DNA of 46,474 nt from the IMG/VR virus record IMGVR_UViG_3300049186_000011; one strand, given 5' to 3'. The notes under the pieces are model-generated. The model worked only from the letters and a program-made list of their open reading frames with translations, was not told the DNA's origin and did not search any database. How positions within the stretch are numbered: position 1 is the stretch's first letter; each line of letters begins with the position of its first letter. Positions 1-46,474 of this stretch are shown here, one piece after another. Both the position numbers and the translations under genes were made by a program. The DNA comes from a virus.

Positions 1-173
1 GCGGAGGCAGCACCCTGGTAGCCGGTGGCGGAGGCAGCACCCCGGGCGCCGGTGGCGGAGGCAGCACCCTGGTAGCCGGTGGCGGAGGCAGCACCCTGGT
101 AGCCGGTGGCGGAGGCAGCACCCTGGTAGCCGGTGGCGGAGGCAGCACCCTGGTAGCCGGTGGCGGAGGCAGG
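1..173. repeat. 27-bp tandem repeat, 6 full units plus a partial one (unit gcggaggcagcacc[ctggtagcc|ccgggcgcc]ggtg)
   Basis: Direct reading. Unit order is Y,R,Y,Y,Y,Y, where Y is the ctggtagcc variant and R the ccgggcgcc variant. 27 nt equals 9 codons. Confidence 0.95.
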
Positions 174-1231: not shown

Positions 1232-1597
1232 CTGCCGGGCGTTTAGCTCGATCTCTAACACATCGTCTGGAGTCAAATCTGGAAGAGGAGCCGAGGACAT
1301 TCTGCCTTCACGATCTACATAACGAAGCGCCTGCAATACATCCCTGGGTTGCGCACCAGGAATTGGCTTCCCATCTTGATCCGTAGGTGTGTGCGACACA
1401 ATGCGCCAAACCCGTCCCGTCTGGGTATCGAGCAAATACTGATCACTCCGGTATTCTGAAATCTGGCCCAGAACAAACCTGCCATTGGCAGCCGCCAGAG
1501 TCTTTTGGGCTGGCGGCTGAACTTTTACGGCGTCCGCTGCCATGCATGGGATATGAGGTATCAGGCAATAAGCTGCACCTAAAATGATCTTTTTCAT
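1223..1597 (-). CDS. Small secreted protein (moron) downstream of cI
   Basis: 124 aa. N-terminal signal peptide MKKIILGAAYCLIPHIPCMA/ADA. AT-rich upstream region (1598-1720). Same orientation as cI. Confidence 0.7.
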   Translation of the reverse strand: MKKIILGAAYCLIPHIPCMAADAVKVQPPAQKTLAAANGRFVLGQISEYRSDQYLLDTQTGRVWRIVSHTPTDQDGKPIPGAQPRDVLQALRYVDREGRMSSAPLPDLTPDDVLEIELNARQKK

Positions 1598-1817
1598 ATA
1601 CGAGTTATAAGCGTTCGTCCAGGAAATTTGTCATCGAATCTATCAATTCTGCCATTTGCATTAGACAAATCGTGACAACCGCAAAAAATCGGGATATATT
1701 TCTTTCCATGTGGAAGCACTAGCGCGGAGTAGTGTCGGTATGAAAACGCCCCCAACGGTTCACGAACTATATGCAGGCATGACGCCAGAGGCGCGCGACG
1801 CCTGGATGCTGCTCGGG

Positions 1818-1845
1818 CAGAAATTCATGCGCCGATGGCCGGCGC
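1818..1845 (-). terminator. Possible weak terminator after the cI-like gene
   Basis: On the minus strand, GCGCCG-gccat-CGGCGC hairpin (1829-1845) followed by AUGAAUUUCU. Confidence 0.35.
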
Positions 1846-1853
1846 CCGCGCGG

Positions 1854-2240
1854 TTACGCCTGGTTGGCGGCCCTGTCCCCGCTGAACATCTCCTGCGCGA
1901 CGTCGACGGCGTCGTCGATGACTGCGCGCCCCTCGGCGTTTGCCATCCGGTAGGCCGCTAATATTCGCAACTCCTGCGGCGTCTCGGCTGACATGCCCAG
2001 CACAGTTCCCGGGAGATTGCGCACACGGCGCAGACGCGTAGGCTCATCATTCGTGAAGAAGTCGGCAGCCTGAACGCTCAGCGCTTCAGCCAACGAGTAA
2101 AGCTTCTCTTCGCTTATCCACTGCTCCCCGCGCTCTATCCGAGAAAGATTGCCATCGGACAATCCTGCGCGCGCCTCCACATCGGCTAGCGTCATCCCAG
2201 CCGCCTTGCGGATCTGCCTGATTCTTTTCCCAACTTTCAT
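1854..2240 (-). CDS. CI-like repressor (XRE-family HTH, no S24 peptidase domain seen)
   Basis: MKVGKRIRQIRKAAGMTLADVEARAGLSDGNLSRIERGEQ... Divergent from the cro-like gene across a 103-bp operator region. An alternative upstream ATG lies at 2324. Confidence 0.8.
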   Translation of the reverse strand: MKVGKRIRQIRKAAGMTLADVEARAGLSDGNLSRIERGEQWISEEKLYSLAEALSVQAADFFTNDEPTRLRRVRNLPGTVLGMSAETPQELRILAAYRMANAEGRAVIDDAVDVAQEMFSGDRAANQA

Positions 2241-11071: not shown

Positions 11072-12377
11072 GATACCGGATGCATTGATCCCGGTGTTTT
11101 CCGGTGATGCCGATGTACGCGGCGCACACGGTGGCCGTGGGTCAGCAAAAACCCGGTCATTTGCCAAAATGCTCGCCGTGCGCGGCTACATGTTCGGCAT
11201 GGCCGGCATCAAGGGGCAATTGCTGTGCGCGCGCCAGTTCATGAACTCGCTGGACGATTCCAGCTTGGAAGAGTGCAAGCGCGCGATTGAGGACGAGCCT
11301 TGGCTGTCGGCGTGGTACGAGATTGGCGACAAATACATCCGCAGCCGGTGCGGCAGCATCTGGTTTGCGTTCGCCGGCCTGGATCGCAACATCGCCAGCG
11401 TTAAATCCAAGGGCCGCATCCTGATTTGCTGGGTGGACGAGGCCGAGCCAGTGACGGATGAGGCATTCACGACGCTGATCCCGACGCTGCGCGAAGAAGG
11501 CGACGACTGGAACGCGGAACTGTGGGTGACGTGGAACCCGAAGCGCAAAAATGCAGCGGTTGAAAAGCGCTTCCGGCAATCCAGTGACCCGCGCGTCAAG
11601 GTCGTGCAGTTGAACTGGCGGGATAACCCCAAATTCCCGGCCATGCTAGAGCGGCAGCGGCAGCGCGATCTGCGCGAGCGGCCAGACCAGTATGAGCATA
11701 TTTGGGAGGGCGACTACGCCACGGTGGTCGAGGGCGCCTACTACGCCATGAGCCTGACGAAAGCGCGCCAGGAACAGCGCATCGGCCGTGTTCCTGCGGA
11801 TCCGCTGATGACAATCCGGCTGTATTGCGACATTGGCGGTACCGGCGCCAGGGCGGACGCATTTGCGATGTGGGCCGCGCAATTCATCGGCAAGGAAATC
11901 CGGGTACTCAACTATTACGAGCGCGTAGGCCAGCCCCTGGCGGCGCACATCGAGTGGATGCGCGAGCAGGGGTACACGACAGCACGCACACAGATATGGC
12001 TGCCACACGACGGCAGTACCCAAGACAAGGTTTTCGACGTGTCCTATGCCAGCGCTCTACGCGCCGCAGGCTACACCGTGACCGTCATTCCGAACCAGGG
12101 CAAGGGGGCCGCAAAAGCGCGCATTGAGGCGGCGCGGCGGCGATTCCCTGCCATGTGGTTCAACGCTGACACGACAGAACCAGGGCGCGATGCGCTGGGC
12201 TGGTATCACGAAAAGCGCGACGAAGTGCGCAATGTTGGGCTGGGACCGGACCACGACTGGTCCAGCCATGGCGCCGATGCATTCGGATTGATGTGCGTGG
12301 CATACGAAGAGCAGTCCTTCGAAGAAGACGAACACGAAGAAGACCAAACCGGTCGATCAACAACAGGCGGCTACTGA
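11052..12377 (+). CDS. terL: Terminase large subunit
   Basis: 441 aa. Walker-A-like GGRGSAKTRS. C-terminal nuclease-like WLPHDG...SSHGADAF. Confidence 0.9.
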   Translation: MTAARIEIPDALIPVFSGDADVRGAHGGRGSAKTRSFAKMLAVRGYMFGMAGIKGQLLCARQFMNSLDDSSLEECKRAIEDEPWLSAWYEIGDKYIRSRCGSIWFAFAGLDRNIASVKSKGRILICWVDEAEPVTDEAFTTLIPTLREEGDDWNAELWVTWNPKRKNAAVEKRFRQSSDPRVKVVQLNWRDNPKFPAMLERQRQRDLRERPDQYEHIWEGDYATVVEGAYYAMSLTKARQEQRIGRVPADPLMTIRLYCDIGGTGARADAFAMWAAQFIGKEIRVLNYYERVGQPLAAHIEWMREQGYTTARTQIWLPHDGSTQDKVFDVSYASALRAAGYTVTVIPNQGKGAAKARIEAARRRFPAMWFNADTTEPGRDALGWYHEKRDEVRNVGLGPDHDWSSHGADAFGLMCVAYEEQSFEEDEHEEDQTGRSTTGGY

Positions 12378-14551
12378 TGGCATACGAAACAATGCAGGAC
12401 AGCGAGGTATCGGGCGACGGTGATGCAGCCGCTACGCCCGCTAAACGCGCGCCAGCGGAACTGCTGCAATCGTTCATCGGCCAGGACAACCTTGTGCCAA
12501 TGCTGGACGCCGATGTCGTGCAGAAGATCGGCATGGAGGTGGTGCGCGGCTATGACTTGGACAAAGCCAGCCGGGCGGATTGGGAGCGCCAGACGCAGAC
12601 CGCAATGGAATTGGCCATGCAGATCGCCAAGGAGAAATCCTGGCCATGGAAGAACGCTGCAAACGTCAAATACCCGCTGATTACCACGGCGGCCATCCAG
12701 TTCAGTGCCCGCGCCTACCCCGCCATTGTGCGCGGGGAGGAAGTTGTCAAGGGCATGGTGATCGGCCCCGACCCTGACGGCAAGAAGAAAGAGCGTGCCG
12801 ACCGCATCGGCCATCACATGTCTTACCAAGTCCTGGAGGAAATCGAGGACTGGGATGAAGAAATGGATAAGCTGCTGCTGCGCATGTCCATCGTCGGCTG
12901 CGAGTTCCGCAAGACGTACTTTGACCGCATGCTGGGCCGGCCATGCTCTGACCTTGCGGCGGCGCGCGATGTGGTTTTCGACCACGCGACACCGTGGAAG
13001 AAGCTGCGCCGCATCACGCACCGCATCGACCTATACAAAAACGATGTGGTCGAACGGGTTCGCGGCGGGCTGTTCGAGGAAGTCACGCTGGGCATGCCGG
13101 ATGGCATCGATCACGACGAGGACGGCGCCTATGAATTCCTGGAGCAGCAATGCTGGTATGACCTGGACGAAGACGGCTACAAAGAGCCCTACATCGTCAC
13201 GGTGCTGAAGGAAACCGGTGAAGTGGCGCGCATCATCGCCCGCTTTGACGAGGACGGCATCTACCTGAACGCCAAAGGCGAGGTGTCGAAGATCGAGCCG
13301 ACCGCCTATTTCACGAAGTTTGGCTTCATGCCGAATCCGGACGGCGGATCGTATGACGTTGGCCTGGGCCTGCTGCTGAACCCGATCAACGAAATGGTCA
13401 ACACGGTCCTGAACCAAATGCTGGACGCCGGCACGCTGGCAAACACTGGCGGCGGGTTCATCGGCAGCGGCTTGAAGATGAAAGGCGGCGTGGCGCGCTT
13501 CGCACCGGGCGAATACAAGCCCGTGGACGTGACCGGTGGCGCCATCCGGGACAACATCTACCACATGGAGCATCGCGGCCCCAACGCCGTCATGTTCCAG
13601 CTGCTGGGTCTCCTGATCGAGGCTGGCAAGGACATATCCAGTGTCAAGGACATCCTGACCGGCGACCAGCAGATCAACCAGACGGCGACGACGACGCTGG
13701 CACTGATCGAGCAGGGTCAAAAGGTATTCAGCGCGATCTACAAGCGCGTGCATCGTTCGCTGAAACAGGAGTTTGCGAAGCTGTTCCGGCTGAATCGCCT
13801 GTATCTGGAGCCAGAGGCGTACTACCGCTACATGGACAAGGTGGACACGATCTCCCTTGATGATTACCAAGGCGATGACACCGACGTGGCACCGGTCAGC
13901 GACCCTAATCTGGTCAGCGACGCGCAGGAATTGACCCGCGCCGAGGCACTGATGCAGTTCGCGCAAGACCCGTTCTTTGATCCCATGCAGTTGCGCCTGC
14001 GGTACCTGAAGGCGCTCAAGGTCGAAAACCCGGAACAACTGCTCCGCGAGCCAGGGCCAGCACCACAAGACCCGCAATTGATCAAGGTACAGGCTGACAT
14101 CGAAGCGCAGCGCGTGCAAGTCACCGCGCAGGCCGAAAAGATGATGGCCGAGAGCGAGAAGATTGCAGCAGAAGTAGAGAATTTGGCCGCGAAAGCGGCC
14201 GAACTGGAGGCCAGCACGGCACTCAAACTTGCGCAGGCTGGCTCGATTCAAATCGGGCCGCAGATTGACCTGCTCATGCAGCGCGTGCAACACATGCTGG
14301 ACCTCCAGAAAATAGCAGTGCAAGGCAAGGTTGACCAACAACAGGAGGCAGCAAATGCAGGACAAGGCGATGACGCAGGAAGAGTACCAGGAGTGGATGG
14401 CGCACCCACTGACCAAGAAGTTTCACCAGTTCCTGGCGGACAGCCGCCAGTCGATGATGGAGCAATGGGGACGGGGGGCACTGACGCCGCAGGAGTCGGT
14501 GACGTATTCGGAGCGATGCCAGATGGTGGCGGAAATCCTGGCGCTGCCTGA
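12377..14551 (+). CDS. Portal protein (P22 gp1-like in size and C-terminal helical region)
   Basis: 724 aa following TerL (TGATG overlap). ...NAANVKYPLITTAAIQFSARAYPAIV... Long helical C-terminus. The last 65 codons overlap the next gene out of frame. Confidence 0.8.
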   Translation: MAYETMQDSEVSGDGDAAATPAKRAPAELLQSFIGQDNLVPMLDADVVQKIGMEVVRGYDLDKASRADWERQTQTAMELAMQIAKEKSWPWKNAANVKYPLITTAAIQFSARAYPAIVRGEEVVKGMVIGPDPDGKKKERADRIGHHMSYQVLEEIEDWDEEMDKLLLRMSIVGCEFRKTYFDRMLGRPCSDLAAARDVVFDHATPWKKLRRITHRIDLYKNDVVERVRGGLFEEVTLGMPDGIDHDEDGAYEFLEQQCWYDLDEDGYKEPYIVTVLKETGEVARIIARFDEDGIYLNAKGEVSKIEPTAYFTKFGFMPNPDGGSYDVGLGLLLNPINEMVNTVLNQMLDAGTLANTGGGFIGSGLKMKGGVARFAPGEYKPVDVTGGAIRDNIYHMEHRGPNAVMFQLLGLLIEAGKDISSVKDILTGDQQINQTATTTLALIEQGQKVFSAIYKRVHRSLKQEFAKLFRLNRLYLEPEAYYRYMDKVDTISLDDYQGDDTDVAPVSDPNLVSDAQELTRAEALMQFAQDPFFDPMQLRLRYLKALKVENPEQLLREPGPAPQDPQLIKVQADIEAQRVQVTAQAEKMMAESEKIAAEVENLAAKAAELEASTALKLAQAGSIQIGPQIDLLMQRVQHMLDLQKIAVQGKVDQQQEAANAGQGDDAGRVPGVDGAPTDQEVSPVPGGQPPVDDGAMGTGGTDAAGVGDVFGAMPDGGGNPGAA

Positions 14552-14615
14552 CGACTACATCAGCGAGTTTTACCGCACCACCAAGGAAGGAGTGAACAAT
14601 GTACGCGAAGATTAA
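14355..14615 (+). CDS. Hypothetical protein (head module)
   Basis: AGGAGG lies 6 nt upstream of ATG 14355. MQDKAMTQEEYQEWMAHPLTKKFHQFLADSRQSMMEQWGRG... Hand-counted GC3 about 85%. Confidence 0.7.
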   Translation: MQDKAMTQEEYQEWMAHPLTKKFHQFLADSRQSMMEQWGRGALTPQESVTYSERCQMVAEILALPDDYISEFYRTTKEGVNNVRED

Positions 14616-14931
14616 AGAACTGGCCGACGAGGCACTGAAGCTGCAAAACAAAGACCGGATGGACTCGGCGCTGCATGAAATCAGCCTGATTTGCCTGGAG
14701 CGGATGCGCGAATGCAGCACGGTGCCGGCGGCGGTATTGCACTCGTATGATGGCGCAGATCGCGCCGCGTATAGCGACACGGACAAAGCGTCGCCAGTGC
14801 AGAATCCGATTGTTGTTGACGGCGCGCCCGGTGATGTCGTGAAGATCAGCGGCAGCCACAACACCGAAACCGGCGAAACAACTGTGCACTCGGTGAAGCT
14901 TGAAAAGCCCAAGAAAGGCGGTGCCAAATGA
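14599..14931 (+). CDS. Hypothetical protein
   Basis: 110 aa, MYAKIKELADEALKLQNKDRMD... Confidence 0.6.
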   Translation: MYAKIKELADEALKLQNKDRMDSALHEISLICLERMRECSTVPAAVLHSYDGADRAAYSDTDKASPVQNPIVVDGAPGDVVKISGSHNTETGETTVHSVKLEKPKKGGAK

Positions 14932-15539
14932 GCGCCCCCTTAATCGCGGAGATAATTTCGCATGGCGACAAGGCCGAAGAGCTTCCTATCGAAACTCTAT
15001 GTCTGTCTGCTCGCACTAATAAATTCTTGAGATCAGCAGGGATTACCCGCATTAAAGACCTGATCCAGCGCTCTAATCTTGAACTGCTGAATATTCCTGG
15101 CTTTGGCAAGAAGTCGCTGGAAGAAGTTACCCAGGTCCTTGAAGTGTTCGATGGTCTTGTGAGTGGAATTTTCACTCGCTCTAAACCTCGTGTTACTGAT
15201 GGCGTCACTAACACCACTGGCTTGCTGCCCGTGGAATACAAAGTGGTGATCCTGCCCGACGATGTCGAAGAAACCGATGAGCGCATCAAGAGCGCCAAGG
15301 CGGCCGGTATTCACCTGATCGAGCAGACGAGCGAGCGCGAAAAAACCAAGCAGGTCAAGGGCCGCTTGATCGCCGTGGGCGGCAACGCGTTCGCGGACTG
15401 GAGCGGCACCATCCCGCAGGTTGGCGACCGCATCTGGTTTGCCAAGCACGCCGGCTACGTAGTGCCCGGGCATGACGGCAAGGAGTACCGCCTGTGCAAT
15501 GACAAGGACATCGCTGCAATCATCGAGGTGCAGTCATGA
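14928..15539 (+). CDS. Fusion protein: RNA polymerase alpha C-terminal-domain-like (HhH) domain plus GroES-like co-chaperonin domain
   Basis: N-terminus ELPIETLCLSARTNKFLRSAGITRIKDLIQRSNLELLNIPGFGKKSLEEVTQVL resembles E. coli RpoA CTD ([46 protein letters not shown]). C-terminus LLPVEYKVVILPDDVEE...GRLIAVGGNAF...VGDRIWFAKHAGYVV..DGKEYRLCNDKDIAAIIE resembles GroES. Confidence 0.75.
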   Translation: MSAPLIAEIISHGDKAEELPIETLCLSARTNKFLRSAGITRIKDLIQRSNLELLNIPGFGKKSLEEVTQVLEVFDGLVSGIFTRSKPRVTDGVTNTTGLLPVEYKVVILPDDVEETDERIKSAKAAGIHLIEQTSEREKTKQVKGRLIAVGGNAFADWSGTIPQVGDRIWFAKHAGYVVPGHDGKEYRLCNDKDIAAIIEVQS

Positions 15540-15955
15540 CGACCGAGCCAACGCATGTATTTGCCTCGCAAACATATCGCGAAATAATGGACGATCTGAT
15601 GGATTACATGTCCAAGGATCGTCAAGTCTACCCCGAGATGGGGAATCGGCATCAATGCCCAACTGGTGACCCGTATATCACGCTGACGATTGGCGGGGTG
15701 AAGGTACAGGGCGATAAGCATAAGTTGTGGGCGACAGACATAGGGGCCGCAGAGGAATTCTTTAAACGCCAGTTTGACCAATATGCGGCGGGCAAAAATG
15801 GAGTTCTGTATTGGCGCAGGCACCCTGAAGTGTCGATGCAGTCATACCAAAATCACTTCACTGGCGGCATGGAGTCTTACATGACCATTACCGCCCGCAT
15901 GGTGATTTCTGACCAGCCAGTGCTAGCAACCGAAACCAAGGAAGAAGCGAAATGA
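15536..15955 (+). CDS. Hypothetical protein
   Basis: 139 aa. Lower-GC gene in the cluster inserted between portal and scaffold. Confidence 0.6.
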   Translation: MTTEPTHVFASQTYREIMDDLMDYMSKDRQVYPEMGNRHQCPTGDPYITLTIGGVKVQGDKHKLWATDIGAAEEFFKRQFDQYAAGKNGVLYWRRHPEVSMQSYQNHFTGGMESYMTITARMVISDQPVLATETKEEAK

Positions 15956-16848
15956 TCACCAAGGCAATGCGATTTGTAATCCGGCGCCCAGCCGGTGAAG
16001 ACGGTAGCAACAACGGCGGCGGCCAAGCGGAAGGCGTAAGCGACGCTCAGGCGCAAGACGACGGTGACCCCGCTGCCGACGCGGCCAGCAAGGCCGTCGA
16101 AGACAAGGCCCGGGAAATGGGCTGGACCCCCAAGGACCAGTTCAAGGGCGACCCGTCGAAATGGCGCGACGCATCGGAATTCGTGGAGCGCGGCGAAAAG
16201 CTGCTGCCCATCGTGCAAGCCAAGGTGAAAAAGCAGGAAGCGGAACTGCGCGAACTGCGCGCCACTGTCAAAGACCTGGGCGATTTCGTCACCAAGACCG
16301 AGCAGCGCGCGTATGACCGCGCCCTGGCCGACCTGACCGCCCAGCGCGCCGCCGCGATTGAAGCGGGTGACGGCAAAGCGTTCACGGAAATTGACGAGCA
16401 AATCCAGTCAGTCAGAGCGGAAGTGGTCGCCAAGGCCCAAAAACAGGCCGCCAAGGCTGAAACGACCGACCCCGAGTATGAAGAGTGGGCCGGCCGGAAT
16501 AAATGGCTGGAAGACCCAGCAATGAGCGCGTACGCCGAATCCATGGCGATCTATCTGCGCAAGTCCGGCGAGAAGGCGACCGGCTCCGATTTCTTGGAAC
16601 TGGTGGCCAAGGAGGTCAAGGCCAAGTTCCCGGAAAAATTCACCAACCCACGCCGCGCCGCCGCGCCAGCCGTTGAAAGCGGTGCCCCTGCGCCACGCAA
16701 AGGTGGCAAGGGCTTTGCCGACATGCCTGCTGACGCCCGCGCAGCATGTGACCGCATGGCCCGCAACCTGTTCAACGGCGATGAAAAGGCGATGGCCAAG
16801 TTCAAAGCCGACTATGTGAAAAACCATTTCGAAGGAGAGGCAGCATGA
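15952..16848 (+). CDS. Scaffolding-like protein
   Basis: 298 aa, charged and Ala/Lys/Glu-rich helical sequence upstream of the capsid genes. Confidence 0.55.
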   Translation: MITKAMRFVIRRPAGEDGSNNGGGQAEGVSDAQAQDDGDPAADAASKAVEDKAREMGWTPKDQFKGDPSKWRDASEFVERGEKLLPIVQAKVKKQEAELRELRATVKDLGDFVTKTEQRAYDRALADLTAQRAAAIEAGDGKAFTEIDEQIQSVRAEVVAKAQKQAAKAETTDPEYEEWAGRNKWLEDPAMSAYAESMAIYLRKSGEKATGSDFLELVAKEVKAKFPEKFTNPRRAAAPAVESGAPAPRKGGKGFADMPADARAACDRMARNLFNGDEKAMAKFKADYVKNHFEGEAA

Positions 16849-17306
16849 GCCGTGAAGCACGCCCGCAAACGCGGGACGAAAAAGCAACAGGCAGGAAGGC
16901 GCGCGTCGGCTTGGGCGTGGCGCGCAGCAGGTTATCGGCGGCAGGACGACCCGGTTATGTTCGGCGCTGGATCAATGACAAAGAGGGTCGCTTGCAACTC
17001 GCTCAGGAGGTCGATTACCAATTCGTGACCGACTACAAAATGCAAGTTGGTGATGTCGATATCAGCAACGGGAACAGTGATCTCGGCTCGCGTGTCAGTC
17101 GCGTGGTCGATCAGACCACCGGCCAAAGGGCATACCTCATGGAAATCAGGGAAGAGTTGTATCAGGAAGATCAGGCAGCAAAGGCATCAGCCCTGGACGA
17201 AACTGACCGGCGCATCCGCACCGGCAAGTGCGCCACCGACGACAACAGGGACGGCCGGTACATCCCGGACAACGGTCGCGGTATCGACATCCAGCGCAGC
17301 AAGTAA
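16845..17306 (+). CDS. Hypothetical head-module protein
   Basis: 153 aa, ...RPGYVRRWINDKEGRLQLAQEVDYQFV... Confidence 0.6.
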   Translation: MSREARPQTRDEKATGRKARVGLGVARSRLSAAGRPGYVRRWINDKEGRLQLAQEVDYQFVTDYKMQVGDVDISNGNSDLGSRVSRVVDQTTGQRAYLMEIREELYQEDQAAKASALDETDRRIRTGKCATDDNRDGRYIPDNGRGIDIQRSK

Positions 17307-17340
17307 CTCCATCGGCGCACGCCGAACACCAAACCAACAA

Positions 17341-17362
17341 GGGCCATCTGTGGCCCTTTTTT
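17341..17362 (+). terminator. Intra-operon hairpin terminator/attenuator
   Basis: GGGCCA-tctg-TGGCCC followed by TTTTTT. Confidence 0.65.
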
Positions 17363-17381
17363 CATCCTAGGACCACTCAAA

Positions 17382-17960
17382 ATGGCAAACACTGATACCC
17401 CGATGGGGCTGCGCCCCGTCGCGCATCGGAACGGCGCCCCTTACAACGGCGCATTCCGCGTTTATTCCACCGCAGCCGGCGACGGCACCGCACTGTACAT
17501 CGGTGACCTGGTCAAACTGGCCGGCACCGCTCAAACGATCCGTGGCCGGGTGCTGCCGGACGTTACCCGCGCAGCTACCGGCGACGTGATTACCGGTGTC
17601 GTCGTCGGCGTGCGCCCAGCTACGCAAGACAGCACCGTCTACCGCGCTGCATCGACCCAGACCGAAGTGTTCATTGCGGACGATCCGGACCTGATCTTTG
17701 AAGCTCAAGAAGGCTCGTCCGGCACGGCACTGACCGCCAATGACGCCGGCCTGAACATCGACTTCGTCGTCGGCGCCGGCAGCACTGCAACCGGCCTGTC
17801 CGGAACGCTGCTGAACAACGCCACCGAGGCGACAACCAACACGCTGGACCTGCATCTGGTCCAGCCAGTACCGCGCGAGGACAACGCCATCGGCTACTCG
17901 TGCAAGTGGCTGGTGACGATCAACCGTCATCAGTATTCCAACCAAGTAGCGGGGGTATAA
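17382..17960 (+). CDS. Putative capsid decoration/accessory protein
   Basis: 192 aa immediately upstream of the major capsid gene. MANTDTPMGLRPV... Confidence 0.4.
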   Translation: MANTDTPMGLRPVAHRNGAPYNGAFRVYSTAAGDGTALYIGDLVKLAGTAQTIRGRVLPDVTRAATGDVITGVVVGVRPATQDSTVYRAASTQTEVFIADDPDLIFEAQEGSSGTALTANDAGLNIDFVVGAGSTATGLSGTLLNNATEATTNTLDLHLVQPVPREDNAIGYSCKWLVTINRHQYSNQVAGV

Positions 17961-17963
17961 ATC

Positions 17964-18878
17964 ATGGCTGGCGGCATCATCAATACGGGTGCACACCCGA
18001 AAACTCTGTGGCCGGGCATCCATTCCCTGTTCGGCATGTGGTACCAGAATCGCGACCTGTGGCGCGATCTGGTCACCGTCCAAACCTCGGACAAGCACCG
18101 CGAGGAAATCGTGCAGGAGGACGGTTTCGGGTTGGCTGCGATCAAGGAGCAAGGTGGGTCCATCGGCTACGACACCACGTCGCAGCAAGGCACCGCGACG
18201 GCGTACCACATCGTGTACGGCCTGGGCTACATCATCACGCGCGAAGCGATCGAAGACAACCAGTACGAAAAACTGGCATCTGCCCGCGCCAAGGCACTGA
18301 AGCGCGCCATGGTGGAAACCAAGAACACCGTGGTGGCGAACTGGTTCAATCGCGGCTTTGACACCAACTACTCCGTTGGTACGGAGGCCAAACCGCTGTT
18401 CTCGGCGTCGCACAGTTCCCAGGTGGGCAGCCAGAGCAACATCCTGGCCACCGCCGCCGACCTGTCTGAAGCTTCGCTGGAAGACCTGTGCATTCAGGTT
18501 GCCGGCGCCACCGATGGCCGTGGCAACAAGGTGTCGCTGCAAATTCGCAGCCTGCACATCCCGCGTCAACTGATGTTCGAAGCAGAGCGCATCCTGAAAT
18601 CGATCAACCAGAACGACACGGCCAACAACGCCATCAACGCGCTGCGCTCGATGAACATGTTCCCGGAAGGTGTGAAAGTCAACCACTTTTTCACTGACCC
18701 GGACGCGTTCTTTGTGCGCACCGACGCGATGGACGGCCTGACGCTGTTCCAGCGCCGCGAACTCGAATTCACGAAAGATAACGAGTTCGGCACGGAAAAC
18801 GCCCTGGCAAAAGCCACCGAACGCTATTCGCTGCAAATTGGCGATTGGCGCGAATGGTACGGCAGCGCCGGCGCGTAA
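17964..18878 (+). CDS. Major capsid protein (putative HK97-fold)
   Basis: 304 aa, placed after scaffold and decoration genes and bracketed by hairpin terminators. Call is mainly by position and composition. Confidence 0.7.
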   Translation: MAGGIINTGAHPKTLWPGIHSLFGMWYQNRDLWRDLVTVQTSDKHREEIVQEDGFGLAAIKEQGGSIGYDTTSQQGTATAYHIVYGLGYIITREAIEDNQYEKLASARAKALKRAMVETKNTVVANWFNRGFDTNYSVGTEAKPLFSASHSSQVGSQSNILATAADLSEASLEDLCIQVAGATDGRGNKVSLQIRSLHIPRQLMFEAERILKSINQNDTANNAINALRSMNMFPEGVKVNHFFTDPDAFFVRTDAMDGLTLFQRRELEFTKDNEFGTENALAKATERYSLQIGDWREWYGSAGA

Positions 18879-18899
18879 CCGGCAATCGCAACAACCTGG

Positions 18900-18928
18900 C
18901 GGCCCCTTCGTGGGGCCGTTCTTCATTG
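18900..18928 (+). terminator. Hairpin terminator after the capsid gene
   Basis: CGGCCCC-ttcgt-GGGGCCG followed by TTCTTCATT. Confidence 0.55.
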
Positions 18929-18947
18929 AACGCTAGGAGTTCACAAC

Positions 18948-19658: not shown

Positions 19659-19678
19659 CACTCACTAAGGAAAATATC

Positions 19679-27597: not shown

Positions 27598-27872
27598 TGG
27601 TCATTCGTCTGAATAGGTTCAACATCCTCTTGCACGTTAAGCAAGGCTTCGTACATGGCAAAAAAATATGGGCGGTTGCGCTCGCTCAGGCGACCGATCA
27701 TTTCATCAAAGCCGGAAACGACGACGGGCGACAGGTTGAAAGACTGCTCAAGGCGCTGAATGATCTCGGCATGCAGCGATCGCCCGTCCAGTTTGGCCGC
27801 ATCCTCCAAACGAGTGCGCAACTCCGGCGGCATCCGAAGTGGGTATGGTGCAATGTGATGTCGATCTGTCAT
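27594..27872 (-). CDS. Mnt/Arc-family ribbon-helix-helix repressor (Mnt-like, 92 aa)
   Basis: MTDRHHIAPYPLRMPPELRTRLEDAAKLDGRSLHAEIIQRLEQS plus a C-terminal extension. Divergent from the Arc-like gene. Confidence 0.7.
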   Translation of the reverse strand: MTDRHHIAPYPLRMPPELRTRLEDAAKLDGRSLHAEIIQRLEQSFNLSPVVVSGFDEMIGRLSERNRPYFFAMYEALLNVQEDVEPIQTNDQ

Positions 27873-27975
27873 ATGCGCATTGTGGATGGCATTCTGATTC
27901 TTTTCAATGAGTCTACTTGCTATCCACAATTGTGGATGCTAATATGAATCCACTTTGGTATCGAAAGGATTAAAA
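27873..27975. promoter_or_regulatory. Divergent operator/promoter region of the immI-like module
   Basis: Perfect 16-bp palindrome ATCCACAATTGTGGAT (27922-27937). Additional half-sites TTGTGGAT (27880-27887) and GAATCCAC (27947-27954). Confidence 0.6.
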
Positions 27976-28137
27976 ATGGCTCAGACAAGAACGCCGTACC
28001 CGCTCAGGCTCCCTGAGCAGTTGCGCGAATGGATGCAACAGCAGGCTGATGCGAACAGTCGGTCTCTGCAGGGCGAGTTGATCCATAGATTGCAACAAAG
28101 CAAGGCAAACGAGGAGGCAAAACATGCGAAACACTGA
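27976..28137 (+). CDS. Arc-like ribbon-helix-helix repressor (53 aa)
   Basis: MAQTRTPYPLRLPEQLREWMQQQADANSRSLQGELIHRLQQS... compares with P22 Arc ...FNLRWPREVLDLVRKVAEENGRSVNSEIYQRVMES. Confidence 0.7.
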   Translation: MAQTRTPYPLRLPEQLREWMQQQADANSRSLQGELIHRLQQSKANEEAKHAKH

Positions 28138-28669
28138 ACTTCAGCTCCCGGTTGTCCACCCTGGTCAGATGGTCACTATTGACGGCGATCATCTGGTGAC
28201 TGATTCGCGGATCGTGGCAAAGGTCTTTGGCAAGGCGCACAAAAACGTCCTTCGAATAATTGATGAAATGAGGGTGAGCAGTAATCCTGAAATCGCAGAG
28301 CATTCGCGGCTCAATTTTGAGCCGTGCATATTTGACTATCGAGCAGGTAAAGGTGGGCTTCGTGCAGCCCCCGGCTATCGCATGACGAAGGATGGGTTAT
28401 CTGAACTTGCGATGAGCTTCACTGGGGACCGCGCGCGCATCTGCCGTATCCGGTTCATTGCGGCTTTTAACGCTATGGCCGAGCAGCTCGCTAACGGAGA
28501 GAAAAATCTGTGGCAGAAGATGCAAGCCTTAATCGCCAAGGAAACGGCGTCGCAGTTGAAAGCCTCGTTCGGCTCGCACCTCATGCTGGATCGCAAGCGG
28601 GAAATCCGGCCACTGCGTGAGGAGCGCCAGGAACTGGAAACAGCCATTCAGCCGTCATTGCTCAATTGA
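28124..28669 (+). CDS. Rha-family phage regulatory protein / antirepressor
   Basis: ...HLVTDSRIVAKVFGKAHKNVLRIIDEM... (pRha-type N-domain). Sits immediately downstream of the Arc-like gene. Confidence 0.7.
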   Translation: MRNTELQLPVVHPGQMVTIDGDHLVTDSRIVAKVFGKAHKNVLRIIDEMRVSSNPEIAEHSRLNFEPCIFDYRAGKGGLRAAPGYRMTKDGLSELAMSFTGDRARICRIRFIAAFNAMAEQLANGEKNLWQKMQALIAKETASQLKASFGSHLMLDRKREIRPLREERQELETAIQPSLLN

Positions 28670-28676
28670 ACTAACC

Positions 28677-28718
28677 AAAGAAAAAGCCCCGAACGATTCT
28701 TGGCAGAGGGTTCGGGGC
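28677..28718 (-). terminator. Hairpin whose U-tract lies on the minus strand
   Basis: GCCCCGAAC (28686-28694) pairs with GTTCGGGGC (28710-28718). An A-tract is on the plus-strand 5' side, which is TTTTTCTTT after the stem on the minus strand. No T-tract follows on the plus strand. Confidence 0.35.
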
Positions 28719-28749
28719 CGATGTCAACCACATAACAGAGGTGAACGGA

Positions 28750-28938
28750 ATGAAGGTTATCACAAAAATGCAACAAGGCCCACTCGTATTGACGCAAAAA
28801 GAGTCGAGGCTGATTGACATGTGGCGCGACCTTGGGGATGGTCAAGAAGCTATGTACCTCATGATGGAGAAGATGCTGAACAGAATGACGCCGAGGCACA
28901 AGGCCCCTGTGCTGCGCTTGGTTACCTCCCGAACATAG
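28750..28938 (+). CDS. Hypothetical small protein in the immI-like island
   Basis: AGAGGTG lies 7 nt upstream of ATG 28750. 62 aa. Confidence 0.55.
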   Translation: MKVITKMQQGPLVLTQKESRLIDMWRDLGDGQEAMYLMMEKMLNRMTPRHKAPVLRLVTSRT

Positions 28939-35591: not shown

Positions 35592-36577
35592 AGCCTCTTC
35601 GCAATTTCATGCGCGGATTCGTTGTAATAAATCTGCAACATCCGCAAATCCTTGTGCCCCACCATCCGCGCCAATTCCAGCACGTTCAGCTTTTTGGCCA
35701 GGCGCGTAATTGCCTCGTGCCGGGTATCGTGGAAAGTCAGCCCCTCAATCCCGGCGCGCTCCTTCGCCTTGCGATATAGCGCATCCAGGCTGGCAGTCGT
35801 GATGCCGAAGCATGCATCGCCAGGATCACCCTTTGGCAGTTGGCCCAGCAATTCGACCGCGCGCGCCGACAATGGAACATCCCGTTTGCTGCCGTTCTTA
35901 GTCATTGGCAGATGCGCTACGCTGCCCGTGATGTCTCCCCAGGTCAGCCCGCATATCTCCCCTGCCCGCATTGCCGTCTCGATGGCGAACAGGAATGCCG
36001 CCGCCACCGCCTCCGACTTGTTGCTCACCGACTCCGCATACCCCAATGCGAGACAAATCCGCTCGATCTCGTCCTCGCTGATGCGCCGGTCGCGTGGAGG
36101 TGAGCCCTTAGGTCGTCGCACGTCAGTAGTCGGGCTCTCCTTGATCCACTTCCATTCCCTGCGCGCTGTGGTGAAAATGTGCGACAACAGATTTAGTTCC
36201 CGGTTGACGGTGGCGCCGGCTACCGTTTTCAGTCGCTCATCCCGCCACTTCCCCAGCATTTCGGATGTCAACTCGCTTACACGGATGTCACCAAGCACTT
36301 TTCCACTGATTACGTGGCTCTGGATGGCGTTCAGCCGAATTTCCTCCCATCGCCCGCCGCGCTTGTGCGTAGAAACTTCCGTCAAGTAGCGATCAAACGC
36401 ATCTTTGCACGTCTTGTCCGTATCAATGCCAGTGTCGGCCATGCGCCGCAACTGCGCCTCTCGCTCGCCAGCCCAAACCTGGGCCTCGCCCTTAGTCGCG
36501 AACAGCTTTGATTCGCGCACGTCCTTCACCTGGATTTGTGCGCGCCAACTATCCCGGTATTTCTTGATTGATGCCAT
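35588..36577 (-). CDS. int: Tyrosine recombinase / phage integrase
   Basis: 329 aa. ...AMRAGEICGLTW..., HDTRHEAITRLAK..., LARMVGHKDLRMLQIYY, matching the R...HxxR...Y catalytic signature. Confidence 0.95.
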   Translation of the reverse strand: MASIKKYRDSWRAQIQVKDVRESKLFATKGEAQVWAGEREAQLRRMADTGIDTDKTCKDAFDRYLTEVSTHKRGGRWEEIRLNAIQSHVISGKVLGDIRVSELTSEMLGKWRDERLKTVAGATVNRELNLLSHIFTTARREWKWIKESPTTDVRRPKGSPPRDRRISEDEIERICLALGYAESVSNKSEAVAAAFLFAIETAMRAGEICGLTWGDITGSVAHLPMTKNGSKRDVPLSARAVELLGQLPKGDPGDACFGITTASLDALYRKAKERAGIEGLTFHDTRHEAITRLAKKLNVLELARMVGHKDLRMLQIYYNESAHEIAKRL

Positions 36578-36825
36578 AGCCCGTCCTCGCGTTGTGCGGG
36601 AATTATGCGGGATTTGTGCGGGATACGGGAAGTTAATTCATCGCACAATAACGCAAAAGCCACTGTTGTGCGCGGGAGAAGTTTTGATATAAGTGCCTGT
36701 TTTATATAGAAAACTATTCAAAAACAGGCACTTACTTTGAATGCTGGGAGTGCTCCGAGCCGGAATCGCATCCCACAGCAGAATGCGGGTTTCCGACTGG
36801 TGTGCGGGATTTTTGCGGGAACTGA
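36578..36825. promoter_or_regulatory. attP-like region with arm-type direct repeats flanking an AT-rich inverted-repeat core
   Basis: TGCGGGA occurs at 36594, 36605 and 36616 (11-bp phasing) and at 36802 and 36813, with degenerate copies at 36623, 36667 and 36783. A 13-bp inverted repeat AAGTGCCTGTTTT (36690-36702) / AAAACAGGCACTT (36720-36732) has a 17-nt AT-rich spacer. Confidence 0.55.
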
Positions 36826-37089
36826 TCAGTTTTTTTCCTGGTACTTTTGCGCCCAGGCGATCACGTCCTTGGCATTATACAGCGGGTGCGCTCGCTGCTT
36901 CGTCGGCAACCGAATCGCCTTCGGGAATGAGGGAAGGCACGCGATGGTCTGCCGCACTACCTGGGGGTGCCGCTTGAAATACGCGGCCACCATATCCATG
37001 TCCCACAGATCGACGGACAGCGGAATGGCAGGCTTCAAGCGTTCCGCGACAGCATCGGCCAGTTTCTCTATCAAGTCAGTTTCGCTCAT
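36826..37089 (-). CDS. Excisionase / AlpA-like HTH protein
   Basis: 87 aa upstream of int. ...LWDMDMVAAYFKRHPQVVRQTIACLPSFPKAIRLP...DVIAWA... Confidence 0.55.
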   Translation of the reverse strand: MSETDLIEKLADAVAERLKPAIPLSVDLWDMDMVAAYFKRHPQVVRQTIACLPSFPKAIRLPTKQRAHPLYNAKDVIAWAQKYQEKN

Positions 37090-37621: not shown

Positions 37622-38106
37622 TTCGCCTCCCCGGTACGCTGGGCGGCGTCGATGCCAAGCTCCAAAGCACGCTGTCGGGCTGCCTTTAGCAGTGTGCTGA
37701 ATTGAGCTTTTGTCAGCGTCTCTACTGCGACGTCCATAAAGCAGCGCTCCAGCGTTTCCTGCCTTATGGGCGAAGGTGTTTGCGCTTTTAGTTTTGTCAA
37801 TTCGGCAGCTATCACACCCTGGCGAATTTTCAGGTCTTTGATGCGCTGCGTGGCATCAAAGAAAGCGCGATTCTTCTTTTTCGAATTAGCAAACTTGATT
37901 GCATCAAGTTCTTTGGCTTCCTGAACAAGCAATTGCAGTTCAGCGATCAGTGCCTTTCGTTGATTCTGCAGTTTTTCGTCTAGAGAAAGAATGGACGTCG
38001 GATTTACACCCCCGCCAAGCAGATCAAAGCCTTTGCGGGAGCCCTTTGTCGATTCATTTGCGGAGCGTGTGAAGAACTGCTCTGCCTTTGCGGTTGCCCC
38101 TATCAT
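37618..38106 (-). CDS. Hypothetical protein, paralog B of 8333..8734
   Basis: 162 aa. The first 33 codons are nucleotide-identical to 8334-8432. Coiled-coil-like middle region. Confidence 0.7.
   Translation of the reverse strand: MIGATAKAEQFFTRSANESTKGSRKGFDLLGGGVNPTSILSLDEKLQNQRKALIAELQLLVQEAKELDAIKFANSKKKNRAFFDATQRIKDLKIRQGVIAAELTKLKAQTPSPIRQETLERCFMDVAVETLTKAQFSTLLKAARQRALELGIDAAQRTGEAK
38007..38105. repeat. 99-bp perfect inverted repeat, copy 2 (partner 8334..8432)
   Basis: The reverse complement equals 8334-8432 exactly. Identity stops at both edges: GTG versus ATG start, and aagaccc versus taaatcc. Confidence 0.95.
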
Positions 38107-38107
38107 G

Positions 38108-39010
38108 CTATTCCCCTTTCTGCGCAGCGATGGCGGCGTCTATGGTCCTGTCTACACTGGCCTCAAAGCAATCTCCGACCCAATCCGTATGCGGGTTATG
38201 CTCAGGCGCGGGAATCCAGCGCGCCAACGACATTTCCGATACGCTGTTTTTCTCCGTGCTGAACGTCATGTTGTCGCGCAGCCACCGATACCGCGCCGCC
38301 TGCTGCGCATCGTCCGCCTGCGCTGGCTGCTGGGCTGCGATGGTGGCGCTGGTTGCGCTGGTTGCGATTTCAGGCATTCGGCCATGTTCTTTATAGAACT
38401 TCGCAACCGCGAATGATGGAAACTGCATGCGTGATGCAATGCCCCATTCGCCATCAGTCCAGATCGCTCCGCAATCATCGCAATCAGTATGCGTATAGTT
38501 TGGGCTTTTGTTCTGGTGTTCGCACATCACCCGCTCATCCCCAGCCGGTTGCGCGGGCCGGGTCTTCGCATATGCAGTTGCGATTACCCGTGCGCAGCGC
38601 TGCGCCGCCTCGTGGTCGCGTGGCGTTTCTGGCCGCGTGTACGAAAGAATCTTCTCAGTGATCCAGTCAATCGTGGGCGCATCCACCGCCACTGCGGGCG
38701 CTGGTGCCGCCGCCTCGCAAGCGGCGCAACCATTCGCAATACACGCATTCGTCGACGAGGCTCCGCAGTGGTAGCATTTCCACGTCGGCGCGGCCTGGCT
38801 GGCCAGTGTTGGCCAATTCGGCAGGCGGGCCAGCACTTCTTCGGCAGCCGCATGGCAGACGTTGCGCAACTTGCGATGGCCTTCTTCATCAAGATACATG
38901 CCGTTCGTGTCCACGCCGTTGATTACCCAGTCGATGGTGCTATCGGACATGCGTTCGACGCGCGGCATGCCTTCCGGGCCGTTGTTGTAGTGGTCTTTAT
39001 TGGCTTCCAT
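38108..39010 (-). CDS. Hypothetical Cys-rich protein
   Basis: 300 aa, ...WKCYHCGASSTNACIANGCAACE... Confidence 0.6.
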   Translation of the reverse strand: MEANKDHYNNGPEGMPRVERMSDSTIDWVINGVDTNGMYLDEEGHRKLRNVCHAAAEEVLARLPNWPTLASQAAPTWKCYHCGASSTNACIANGCAACEAAAPAPAVAVDAPTIDWITEKILSYTRPETPRDHEAAQRCARVIATAYAKTRPAQPAGDERVMCEHQNKSPNYTHTDCDDCGAIWTDGEWGIASRMQFPSFAVAKFYKEHGRMPEIATSATSATIAAQQPAQADDAQQAARYRWLRDNMTFSTEKNSVSEMSLARWIPAPEHNPHTDWVGDCFEASVDRTIDAAIAAQKGE

Positions 39011-46059: not shown

Positions 46060-46474
46060 TTACTCTTCGATGGCCGCAACAAATTCGCCGTTTGCACTCA
46101 GCATGTAATACGTGTCCGGCTCAATGCCGTTTTCACCGACTTTGCTGGCGCGAATATGCACGATTTCGCCGTCATCGTTGCGGTACACGAGGCAAATAGC
46201 GCAGCCAGCGGCGGCACGCGCTCGGCCAGACCAGCCAGTTGACAGTGCGACGCTTGCCTTGCCGGTGGCGGAGGCAGCACCCCGGGCGCCGGTGGCGGAG
46301 GCAGCACCCTGGTAGCCGGTGGCGGAGGCAGCACCCCGGGCGCCGGTGGCGGAGGCAGCACCCTGGTAGCCGGTGGCGGAGGCAGCACCCCGGGCGCCGG
46401 TGGCGGAGGCAGCACCCTGGTAGCCGGTGGCGGAGGCAGCACCCCGGGCGCCGGTGGCGGAGGCAGCACCCTGG
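46060..46474 (-). CDS. C-terminal part of the repeat protein that starts at 560 (wraps the junction)
   Basis: The frame G(A/Y)(R/Q)GAASAT continues into ...GKASVALSTGWSGRARAAAGCAICLVYRNDDGEIVHIRASKVGENGIEPDTYYMLSANGEFVAAIEE, with TAA at 46060-46062. It has no internal Met, so it is absent from the ORF track. Confidence 0.8.
   Translation of the reverse strand, partial: QGAASATGARGAASATGYQGAASATGARGAASATGYQGAASATGARGAASATGYQGAASATGARGAASATGKASVALSTGWSGRARAAAGCAICLVYRNDDGEIVHIRASKVGENGIEPDTYYMLSANGEFVAAIEE
46261..46474. repeat. 27-bp tandem repeat, 7 full units plus partials, alternating R,Y,R,Y,R,Y,R,Y(partial)
   Basis: Direct reading. Same unit as 1-173. The last 72 nt equal the first 72 nt of the window. 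Confidence 0.95.

Follow-up and report, generated by a model that had tools for sequence, protein, structure and literature searches.

An αCTD-like domain of RNA polymerase fused in frame to a GroES-type co-chaperonin in a temperate, podovirus-like phage

Co-chaperonins of the GroES type are common in phages and are usually regarded as simple stand-ins for the lid of the host chaperonin. In the phage sequence considered here, a gene behind the portal gene was initially annotated as a single open reading frame joining a GroES-like half to a domain that resembles the C-terminal domain of the bacterial RNA polymerase (RNAP) α subunit (αCTD), through which RNAP contacts DNA (UP elements) and class I activators. 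This raises the questions of whether the fusion is real, how it arose and what the added domain might do on a phage lid. The sequence was taken from IMG/VR record IMGVR_UViG_3300049186_000011, and the whole 46,474 nt stretch is referred to as the window. The phage that carries the gene is temperate and podovirus-like.

The fusion gene (14928..15539, plus strand, as are all features given below) encodes a protein of 203 aa plus a stop codon, in which Pfam finds an αCTD-like and a GroES/Cpn10 domain separated by a linker. It starts with ATG and has no internal stop over 612 nt. The ATG overlaps the stop codon of the upstream ORF (ATGA), which is, by its sequence, an arrangement for translational coupling; together with a Shine-Dalgarno (SD)-like sequence, GAAAGGCGG, it occupies 14913..14930 and is kept in the alignment with two relatives, L001 and L002, so that the start codon and SD of the fusion gene are those of its relatives. 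Production of an unfused GroES from an internal start was considered and rejected, as the in-frame TTG (codon 99) and GTG (codon 102) both lack an SD, and starting at either would mean the loss of the family-invariant residues N95 and G98. The earlier statement was that neither a stop nor an internal start lies between the two domains; there is no stop, and no SD-bearing internal start precedes the GroES core. That an assembly chimera or a sequencing error merged two separate genes is extremely unlikely. The identical 203-aa protein is present on three JGI contigs, and a Logan contig from a separate assembly (L004, SRR35220073) encodes the same protein and is 100% identical to positions 9398-25539 of the window, about 16 kb that span the junction; the reading frame is kept across both junctions, translation begins at the start and SD that the relatives have too, and the lack of a stop argues in the same direction. 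What speaks for an artefact is that the known copies may all stem from one environment or sample. The fusion is known from one phage genotype only.

The GroES/Cpn10 core (residues 95-203; 15210..15536) is the only half of the protein that is covered by the 113 homologous clusters. Pfam Cpn10 (PF00166) matched residues 122-199 with E=2.6e-7 (31 bits against a gathering threshold of 21.1), PHROG 3188, 'co-chaperonin GroES', matched at 1.4e-6, and GroES was found as a PDB sequence match at 5e-4. An AlphaFold2 (AF2) model had pLDDT >90 for residues 100-200, and a Foldseek search with the core returned GroES, Hsp10 or cpn10 structures as its top 31 matches (TMt 0.58-0.76, probability 1.0), with T4 gp31 at rank 33; GroES (1aon_O), human Hsp10 and M. 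tuberculosis cpn10 were among them. These results bear out the co-chaperonin pattern that had been read into residues of about 99-203. Against the NCBIfam equivalog models of cellular GroES, the score fell well short of the cut-offs. The motif AAGIHLI (15300..15320) occupies the place of the GroEL-contacting mobile loop and aligns to A(G/S)GIVI of 3nx6_A and 8wuc_a, in that G127, which is nearly invariant in the GroES family, and the I-H-L after it match the GGIV/SGIV of solved GroES structures. In viral GroES this loop consists of a Gly and three hydrophobic residues, often with one polar residue, and about 23% of viral GroES have a polar substitution in the hydrophobic tripeptide (PMC5649160); the His at tripeptide position 2 is a substitution of this type. 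All family-invariant residues are retained. Compared with L001, the core has 92% amino acid and 93.9% nucleotide identity with a dN/dS of 0.17, and by this measure it is under purifying selection. A second, unfused GroES gene was not found in the window.

The N-terminal domain (residues 15-72; 14970..15143) is a helix-hairpin-helix of the RNAP αCTD type. Pfam RNA_pol_A_CTD (PF03118) matched these residues with E=6e-15 (55.2 bits against a gathering threshold of 23.8) over model positions 9-66 of 67, and the αCTD of E. coli RpoA was a PDB sequence match at 2e-7. When an αCTD alignment was given as input, AF2 modelled residues 20-72 with pLDDT 86-91. In Foldseek, 50 of the 50 top matches to the model were RNAP α, and the αCTD-only entries superposed with an rmsd of 0.5-1.1 Å over 55-62 aa and TMt up to 0.94 (for example 7vpd_S, 0.5 Å over 55 aa, TMt 0.94; 9dvt_A, 1.1 Å over 61 aa). 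Every core residue of the fold is intact. The resemblance to the C-terminal domain of E. coli RpoA noted by eye over residues of about 15-75 is confirmed by profile and by fold, as is its fusion to a GroES/Cpn10 domain in a single ORF. The NCBIfam rpoA and GroES models each matched one half of the protein separately, the former with 28-47 bits against cut-offs of 228-523, and the Pfam domain of the α N-terminal domain (αNTD) was absent from the fusion protein; the N-terminal half is best described as an αCTD-like module and not as an α subunit. Identity to enterobacterial RpoA αCTD was 39-44% over 52-61 aa, where the enterobacterial protein may not represent the RpoA of the host, and the best single-domain score was 38 bits compared with 34 bits for E. 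coli, so that the module is no nearer to RpoA than to its non-RpoA paralogues. Between the two Pfam domains lies a linker (residues 79-98, SGIFTRSKPRVTDGVTNTTG; 15162..15221) with pLDDT of about 41 and no secondary structure; the linker region, about 20-25 aa, is predicted to be flexible or disordered.

Functional determinants are given in E. coli RpoA numbering. At the '265' DNA-contact positions, R265, G296, K298 and S299 are kept as R29, G60, K62 and S63, and two of the six classical UP-element contact positions are changed (N268 to K32, N294 to G58). All four kept residues were invariant in an alignment of RpoA fragments, and in a mixed αCTD-like alignment G60 was invariant and R29 nearly so. 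The '261' determinant for σ70 region 4 is not kept (D259 and E261 are replaced by T23 and C25), and the '287' surface is partly alike (S49-N50-L51-E52 compared with T285-E286-V287-E288).

Comparison with unfused relatives points to the origin of the module. In the closest relative, L001, the genes stand in the same order, and GroES has 130 aa only. In the fusion gene, 273 nt (14937..15209, codons 4-94) take the place of 54 nt, which in L001 code for a short tail at the N-terminus, DEFEAAELAQHQSRNGTL; by blastn, L001 positions 1-376 correspond to window 14567-14936 and positions 431-3035 to window 15210-17833. Relative to L001, L002 and a third relative, L003, the swap is precise and in frame, and the inserted segment consists of one complete domain plus linker. 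Its GC content is 46.9%, against 59.0% (sd 4.0) for the window, a value that belongs to the lowest 0.67% when windows of 273 nt are compared and that agrees with the initial hand count of about 46%; GC at third codon positions (GC3) is 45% in codons 4-94 and 83% in codons 95-203. The break in GC and GC3, together with a relative that has a 92%-identical core and lacks the segment, indicates that the 273-nt module was acquired recently, horizontally and in frame, as had been proposed. With so recent an acquisition, as it appears, an intact domain does not count as evidence of selection. No promoter or terminator signals were found inside the segment beyond the counts expected from shuffled sequence.

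The initial annotation had also placed a low-GC insert between the portal and scaffold genes. The dip in GC is real, but it does not reflect a multi-gene insert; it is the 273-nt piece inside one gene. Likewise, the suggestion that the ORFs at 14355..14615, 14599..14931 and 15536..15955 form a cassette with the fusion gene was not upheld, as all three are kept in relatives that encode a plain 130-aa GroES and so do not travel with the insert. The fusion gene sits in a late head operon between the portal gene (12377..14551; PHROG 1216, 5.9e-18; also called as a gene in L004), at the upstream end of the head-morphogenesis module, and the scaffold and capsid genes, as it does in related phages. 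The major capsid protein is encoded at 17964..18878 (PF25209, Phage_capsid_4, 2.6e-7; PHROG 371) and has homologues in isolated phages. In this phage group, GroES normally follows the portal gene directly, as it does in the isolated Alcaligenes phage vB_Af_QDWS535, and the order TerL-portal-GroES-...-capsid is conserved and seen in an isolated phage.

The fusion was found nowhere else in the searches run, in keeping with the initial impression that an αCTD/GroES architecture was not known before. An αCTD-like domain was present in none of the 113 related GroES clusters and was absent from the 80 of 212 IMG/VR GroES loci examined. In the other direction, an exhaustive phmmer search with the N-terminal half found Cpn10 in none of the best 150 of 1661 αCTD-like matches, a ranking by summed score that favours tandem-repeat proteins and in which a single-domain relative below about 55 bits is not visible, and Cpn10 was also in none of the best 120 αCTD-like matches of a further listing. 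Literature searches yielded neither a described αCTD-Cpn10 architecture nor any account of αCTD homologues encoded by phages. The donor was likewise not found: the N-terminal 98 aa alone gave zero matches in a word-indexed search, among the matches listed no relative exceeded roughly 50% identity to the module, back-translated patterns gave at best partial matches of 42-59% (viral, metagenome and genome contigs), an exact 23-mer of the insert was absent from metagenome contigs, a profile search with the module returned mainly RpoA fragments, and the cluster names of the closest αCTD-like proteins did not point to a donor taxon. Most tblastn matches to the N-terminal half in the phage collection were rejected as host rpoA, found in 'phage' records that are contaminated or wrongly labelled, such as MT835508.1 with its S4-RpoA-L17 operon. 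Only CRP-701 gp9 and V16 gp23 were retained as genuine phage αCTD-like proteins.

The fusion protein shares the small Cpn10 fold, the GroEL-binding mobile loop, the association with head genes and the lack of a phage GroEL with the phage co-chaperonins T4 gp31, RB49 CocO and the 'GroES-only' viral Cpn10 proteins, whose genes are widespread and were surveyed in PMC5649160. It differs from them in carrying an αCTD-type domain on a linker at its N-terminus, an appendage that is not described in that survey, and, unlike T4 gp31, it appears from its sequence to keep the roof hairpin in shortened form. It resembles bacterial GroES/Cpn10 in fold, domain length, mobile loop and conserved Gly and Asp positions, but has only about 21-30% identity to it, comes from a phage and has another domain fused to it. 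Although the helix-hairpin-helix superposes so closely on the bacterial αCTD, here it forms the N-terminus of an unrelated protein that has no αNTD, and D259, E261, N268 and N294 are changed. That the domain is portable outside RNAP is evident from non-RpoA αCTD proteins, namely tandem-repeat proteins and the gene products of Roseobacter phage CRP-701 (gp9) and Ruegeria phage vB_RpoS-V16 (gp23). In contrast to the fusion, these are either repeat proteins of cells or products of early or replication modules, lack Cpn10, and are 22-47% identical to the module among the matches listed. A terminally extended Cpn10 can still cap a chaperonin, as in chloroplast Cpn20, a tandem Cpn10-Cpn10 fusion; Cpn20, however, doubles the same domain, whereas here Cpn10 is joined to an unrelated partner, a domain of nucleic-acid binding or transcription. 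Cpn20 is reviewed in PMC5780408.

GroES forms a heptamer, and judging by GroES structure in general, the N-terminal attachment should leave the heptamer and the GroEL interface clear. The N-terminal tail of the GroES family is hypervariable in sequence and ranges from 0 to 51 aa, with further cases of 75 and 131 aa, which suggests that this terminus tolerates appendages; some add-ons look structured (CxxC...CxxC tails and one 131-aa domain), which hints that it serves as an adaptor site. The roles put forward at first were a tether of host GroEL to DNA, RNAP or activators, a decoy for αCTD-dependent activators, and recruitment of chaperonin to the assembling head. The reading that we tentatively prefer, and regard as quite possible, is that of a working co-chaperonin whose heptamer carries seven αCTD-like modules that would add multivalent, low-specificity DNA binding. 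The core probably still partners host GroEL in folding head proteins, since the mobile loop is intact, the invariant residues are kept and selection has been purifying; the major capsid protein is a likely client, by analogy with T4 gp23. Given the heptamer and the tolerated extensions, the modules would be displayed on the outside of the lid on flexible tethers. R265, G296, K298 and S299 are the residues by which the RNAP αCTD grips the DNA minor groove and backbone, and their retention as R29, G60, K62 and S63 together with the loss of the σ70 contacts makes DNA binding the likeliest added property and, as far as residue conservation goes, favours it over contact with σ. αCTD-like domains are usually repeated within a protein (2-12 times in tandem in the top matches), which fits a low-affinity module that acts by avidity. 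The co-chaperonin, and hence GroEL, would then be concentrated on phage or host DNA at the sites of late-gene transcription and translation and of head assembly and filling. The αCTD favours A/T-rich minor grooves. The 59% GC of the phage DNA, and the changes at N268 and N294, count against such a tether.

A stronger version, which we consider distinctly unlikely, is that the fusion is an adaptive coupling of the chaperonin to nucleic acid or the transcription apparatus, or a sink for an αCTD-dependent host regulator; the lid would dock GroEL on DNA, UP-like elements or αCTD partners at late phage promoters, so that capsid and portal proteins would fold at the site of their synthesis or of DNA packaging. 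Somewhat doubtful, but to be taken seriously, is the idea that the module is a neutral or transient passenger, brought into the hypervariable tail by illegitimate recombination, and that the protein is a plain phage GroES. The recency of the event fits this, with GC3 unameliorated and a close relative that lacks the insert, as do the single genotype, the variability of the family tail in both length and sequence and the lack of any fixed αCTD fusion in the clusters and IMG/VR loci covered. Less easily squared with a passenger are the gain of exactly one complete domain plus linker, in frame and with the residues of the fold core intact, the improbability that seven bulky domains of a DNA-binding type would be free of phenotype on an abundant late protein, and the structured add-ons elsewhere in the family, which hint at adaptor use of the N-terminus.

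Phages commonly target or exploit the αCTD, and one such case is described in PMC7552054. With this precedent, the module might instead be a protein-binding decoy or adaptor, mimicking the host αCTD and binding a class I activator, NusA AR2, a Spx-like regulator or a phage activator; the partner would be sequestered through the avidity of the heptamer, or GroEL/GroES would be drawn to transcription complexes. This is unlikely, in spite of a fold essentially identical to the RNAP αCTD, the identity to enterobacterial RpoA and the partly similar '287' surface, because a host mimic should be very similar to its model and no RpoA is closer to the module than non-RpoA paralogues are, the σ70 contacts have become T and C, and the gene lies in a late head operon, not with early host-takeover genes. 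Very unlikely is the converse possibility that GroES is a mere oligomerisation scaffold, its co-chaperonin activity lost or irrelevant, for a heptameric αCTD-type DNA-binding or regulatory factor. The normally multivalent state of αCTD-like modules and the lack of an unfused GroES in the window would suit it, but without that second copy the phage would forfeit a gene conserved here across the phage group, and the close identity of the core to its unfused relative, its low dN/dS and its intact mobile loop all speak for a lid that is still in use.

The fusion shows the N-terminus of the lid in use as a place to attach a foreign domain, and the zinc-ribbon-like or uncharacterised add-ons in other family members point the same way. 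As a snapshot of how a phage gene accretes a domain it is unusually clean, with the composition of the donor type still visible, exact junctions and an unfused sister at hand. If the module is functional, the protein would represent a natural targeting of GroEL/GroES to DNA or transcription complexes, or else a multivalent αCTD mimic, and a single small protein allows a direct test of both; the adaptive reading, whether as coupling or as a sink, would if true connect the chaperonin and transcription machineries in a way not described before. With regard to the host, no tRNA genes were found, so that they give no clue. The relatives identified through the capsid protein infect Roseobacter, Alcaligenes, Pelagibacter, Caulobacter and others.

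The ORF at 14928..15539 on the plus strand comprises 203 codons with no internal stop, and its ATG shares bases with the stop codon of the preceding ORF (ATGA), with the Shine-Dalgarno (SD)-like sequence GAAAGGCGG just ahead. The initial annotation had described it as a single gene fusing an RNA polymerase αCTD-like domain to a GroES-like domain, and this was borne out by Pfam searches, in which both RNA_pol_A_CTD (PF03118; residues 15-72, E=6e-15, 55.2 bits, gathering score 23.8) and Cpn10 (PF00166; residues 122-199, E=2.6e-7, 31 bits, gathering score 21.1) scored above gathering on the fusion protein. Sequence searches of the PDB returned dozens of RNAP α subunits for the N-terminal half (best match E. 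coli αCTD, 2e-7) and GroES/cpn10 entries for the C-terminal half. NCBIfam rpoA models matched one half and GroES models the other, both far below their whole-protein cut-offs, and the PHROGs match (phrog_3188) was confined to the GroES half.

Both folds were also recovered by AlphaFold and Foldseek. The model of the GroES half, built on an alignment of 70 GroES homologues, had a pLDDT above 90 over residues 100-200 and retrieved GroES (1aon_O), human Hsp10, mycobacterial cpn10 and T4 gp31. A second model, of residues 1-98 with an alignment of 86 αCTD sequences, gave pLDDT values of 86-91 at residues 20-72 and about 41 at residues 79-98; all 50 of its best Foldseek matches were RNAP α subunits, and αCTD-only PDB entries superposed at 0.5-1.1 Å over 55-62 residues. 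The profile, PDB and model matches for each half therefore point to a layout of an αCTD-like domain (about residues 15-75), a predicted disordered linker (about 79-98) and a GroES core (95-203).

A full-protein search of 5.8 billion protein clusters identified 113 relatives of 111-231 aa, every one of which covered the C-terminal half only. The best of these, P0001 (130 aa), shared 92% identity with the GroES core of the fusion. The P0001 contig, L001, and the two contigs of relative P0002 (L002 and L003) share the gene order of the window, namely a small ORF, GroES and ORFs of about 137, 295 and 155 aa; in L002 and L003 this order extends to the portal upstream and to a 192-aa ORF and the capsid gene downstream. 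Alignment with L001 (blastn, MAFFT) held up to 14936 and resumed from 15210, so that 273 nt in the window (14937-15209, codons 4-94) occupy the place of 54 nt in L001. In L001 this stretch codes for the tail DEFEAAELAQHQSRNGTL; P0001, P0002 and P0024 all have it, which makes it the ancestral state in their subgroup. The 273-nt segment has a GC content of 46.9%, compared with a mean of 59.0% (sd 4.0) for the window as a whole, a value as low being found in 0.67% of 273-nt windows, and GC3 within the ORF rises from 45% in codons 4-94 to 83% in codons 95-203. The compositional break and the replacement relative to L001 agree with the earlier suggestion of a recent αCTD acquisition, and carry the signature of in-frame acquisition from a lower-GC donor. 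Searches for the donor with back-translated patterns in IMG/VR, JGI metagenome contigs and 185,579 species genomes gave only partial matches of 42-59%, and an exact 23-mer of the insert was absent from metagenome contigs. An exhaustive phmmer search of the αCTD-like part against 1.84 billion representatives yielded 1661 αCTD-like matches; the highest single-domain score among the best 150 of these was 38 bits and E. coli RpoA scored 34 bits, and on these scores the best match appears no better than E. coli RpoA.

An artefactual origin of the fusion is unlikely, and we regard it as scarcely credible, because the identical 203-aa sequence is present on three JGI contigs and on a Logan contig that was assembled separately from run SRR35220073 and matches window 9398-25539 at 100% identity, both segment junctions are in frame, the start codon and SD are the same as those of the relatives, and no internal start with an SD precedes the GroES core.

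The proposal that the neighbouring ORFs form one cassette with the fusion gene did not hold, as the same ORFs are conserved beside unfused GroES genes in L001 and L002 (orf110, orf139, orf298, orf153 and orf192; 65-93% amino acid identity in L001 and 41-76% in L002); of the earlier interpretation, the recent acquisition was supported and the cassette was not. Alcaligenes phage vB_Af_QDWS535, an isolate, shares this TerL-portal-GroES-...-GpT-like capsid layout. Thus, GroES directly after the portal is normal for this phage group, and the novelty lies in the 273-nt module only. The 139-aa ORF adjoining the fusion downstream (15536..15955; GC 51%, GC3 59%) is a second soft spot in both composition and evolution: its product is only 65% identical to that of L001, against 87-93% for several neighbours, and had no Pfam or PHROG match. 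Upstream, a 94-aa ORF (14331..14615, plus strand) runs in a different frame across the final ~220 nt of the portal gene. The JGI, ENA and Logan gene calls all omit it, yet its product has a conserved counterpart of 102 aa in L002 (9479..9787; 44% identity over 96 aa, E=1.8e-16) that likewise overlaps the P/G/A-rich C-terminal tail of the portal; the ORF may be an overlapping gene that gene calling has missed.

The αCTD/GroES architecture was not found elsewhere. No αCTD-like domain was present in the 113 related GroES clusters, no GroES-family HMM match in the best 150 of the 1661 αCTD-like representatives, and no PF00166 in the 120 best profile-search matches. Among 212 IMG/VR GroES-family loci, the 80 inspected lacked an αCTD-like domain both in the GroES frame from stop to stop and in any frame within ±2.5 kb of GroES, while the window, used as the positive control, gave one match (6e-28). 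Fusions are unmentioned in a survey of 1479 viral GroES genes (PMC5649160), and a literature search found no description of the architecture. Nothing in these searches suggests that it is known or common; the fusion has been seen in one phage genotype and gives a phage co-chaperonin an accessory domain for which there is no precedent.

T4 gp31 and gp23 provide the precedent for folding of a head protein by a phage co-chaperonin, and by analogy the GroES core of the fusion would act as a lid on host GroEL in the folding of head proteins. The core looks functional, since all family-invariant residues are kept, dN/dS against L001 is 0.17, the mobile loop G127-I-H-L aligns to GGIV/SGIV, the GroEL-contact motif in GroES proteins of solved structure, and there is no second GroES gene within the window. 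This loop also fits the viral mobile-loop pattern described in PMC5649160. N-terminal tails in the phage GroES family range from 0 to 51 aa (51 aa in P0073 and P0087), with single members at 75 or 131 aa; the 131-aa domain of P0046 has no Pfam match, P0061, P0062 and P0100 carry CxxC...CxxC zinc-ribbon-like tails, and a 229-aa protein (L060) is extended at both termini. Given this natural hypervariability of the tail, the GroES N-terminus is a permissive site, and perhaps a general adaptor site.

In the alignment from the PDB sequence search, the module keeps R29, G60, K62 and S63, which correspond to R265, G296, K298 and S299 of the minor-groove and backbone contacts in E. coli αCTD. All four are invariant in an alignment of RpoA fragments; in a mixed αCTD-like alignment G60 is invariant and R29 nearly so. 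E. coli N268 and N294 are replaced by K and G, and the σ70-contact residues D259 and E261 by T and C. RNAP holds two αCTD, and the best database matches listed have 2-12 tandem αCTD-like copies per protein; such domains typically act in multiples. We tentatively favour, at somewhat short of even chances, a functional co-chaperonin to which multivalent DNA binding of low specificity has been added. The GroES heptamer would present seven αCTD-like modules on flexible tethers, and could hold GroEL/GroES close to phage DNA, at the sites of late protein synthesis and head filling. It is rather doubtful that the module is a recent neutral passenger in the permissive N-terminal tail; the recent acquisition would suit such a passenger, and the retained contact residues would suit DNA binding. 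That the module is a decoy or adaptor that binds the protein partners of αCTD is a little less probable again, the σ70-contact positions being substituted in a domain that otherwise keeps the αCTD fold. A role for GroES as no more than a heptamerisation scaffold would fit a module acting in multiples, and is very improbable for a core with its invariant residues and GroEL-contact loop kept.

Modules of this kind circulate in phages too, as seen in genuine phage proteins, Roseobacter phage CRP-701 gp9 (L005 2713..3306; Pfam αCTD-like, 2.9e-10) and Ruegeria phage vB_RpoS-V16 gp23 (L006 3001..3867; 1.2e-10), in which the domain is joined to other sequence and the genes lie in early, replication or recombination regions; an 'RNA polymerase subunit alpha' annotation on one of the two is wrong. 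Several other matches in the phage collection were due to bacterial rpoA within the records. MT835508.1 ('UNVERIFIED Bacteriophage sp.', 9333-17509) contains an S4-RpoA-L17 operon, and rpoA-like matches of 39-44% identity, two annotated as rpoA, occur in records named as Salmonella, Staphylococcus, Enterococcus, Listeria and Acinetobacter phages; these records look like host contamination or mislabelling. Proteins with 2-12 tandem αCTD-like repeats form a sizeable population (P0114, P0140, P0116, P0117 and others), P0114 having 11 such stretches in 1031 aa and P0140 12 in 900 aa. In P0163 and P0172 the repeats are joined to σ70 region 4-like segments, and the module itself had a weak NCBIfam match to part of the BREX kinase PglW.

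The window, a JGI metagenome contig of 46,474 bp, belongs to a podovirus-like temperate phage. The contig codes for an Sf6-type small terminase, large terminase, portal, major capsid protein, T7 gp14-like internal virion protein, Rha regulator, tyrosine integrase, PD-(D/E)XK nuclease and DNA methylase. Both contig ends lie inside one 27/54-nt tandem repeat array, with 6.4 copies of the 27-nt unit at 1..172 and 7.8 at 46261..46474, and the contig starts and ends with an identical 72-nt sequence; it probably represents a complete or circular genome broken in assembly within the repeat of 27-nt period. If coding, the repeat would specify a Gly-rich 9-aa unit. Other low-GC islands (273-nt windows below 50% GC) lie at 1357..1856, 27697..28927, 36461..36917 and 37642..38158, the lowest value (44%) being near position 1433, and may be morons or regulatory regions.
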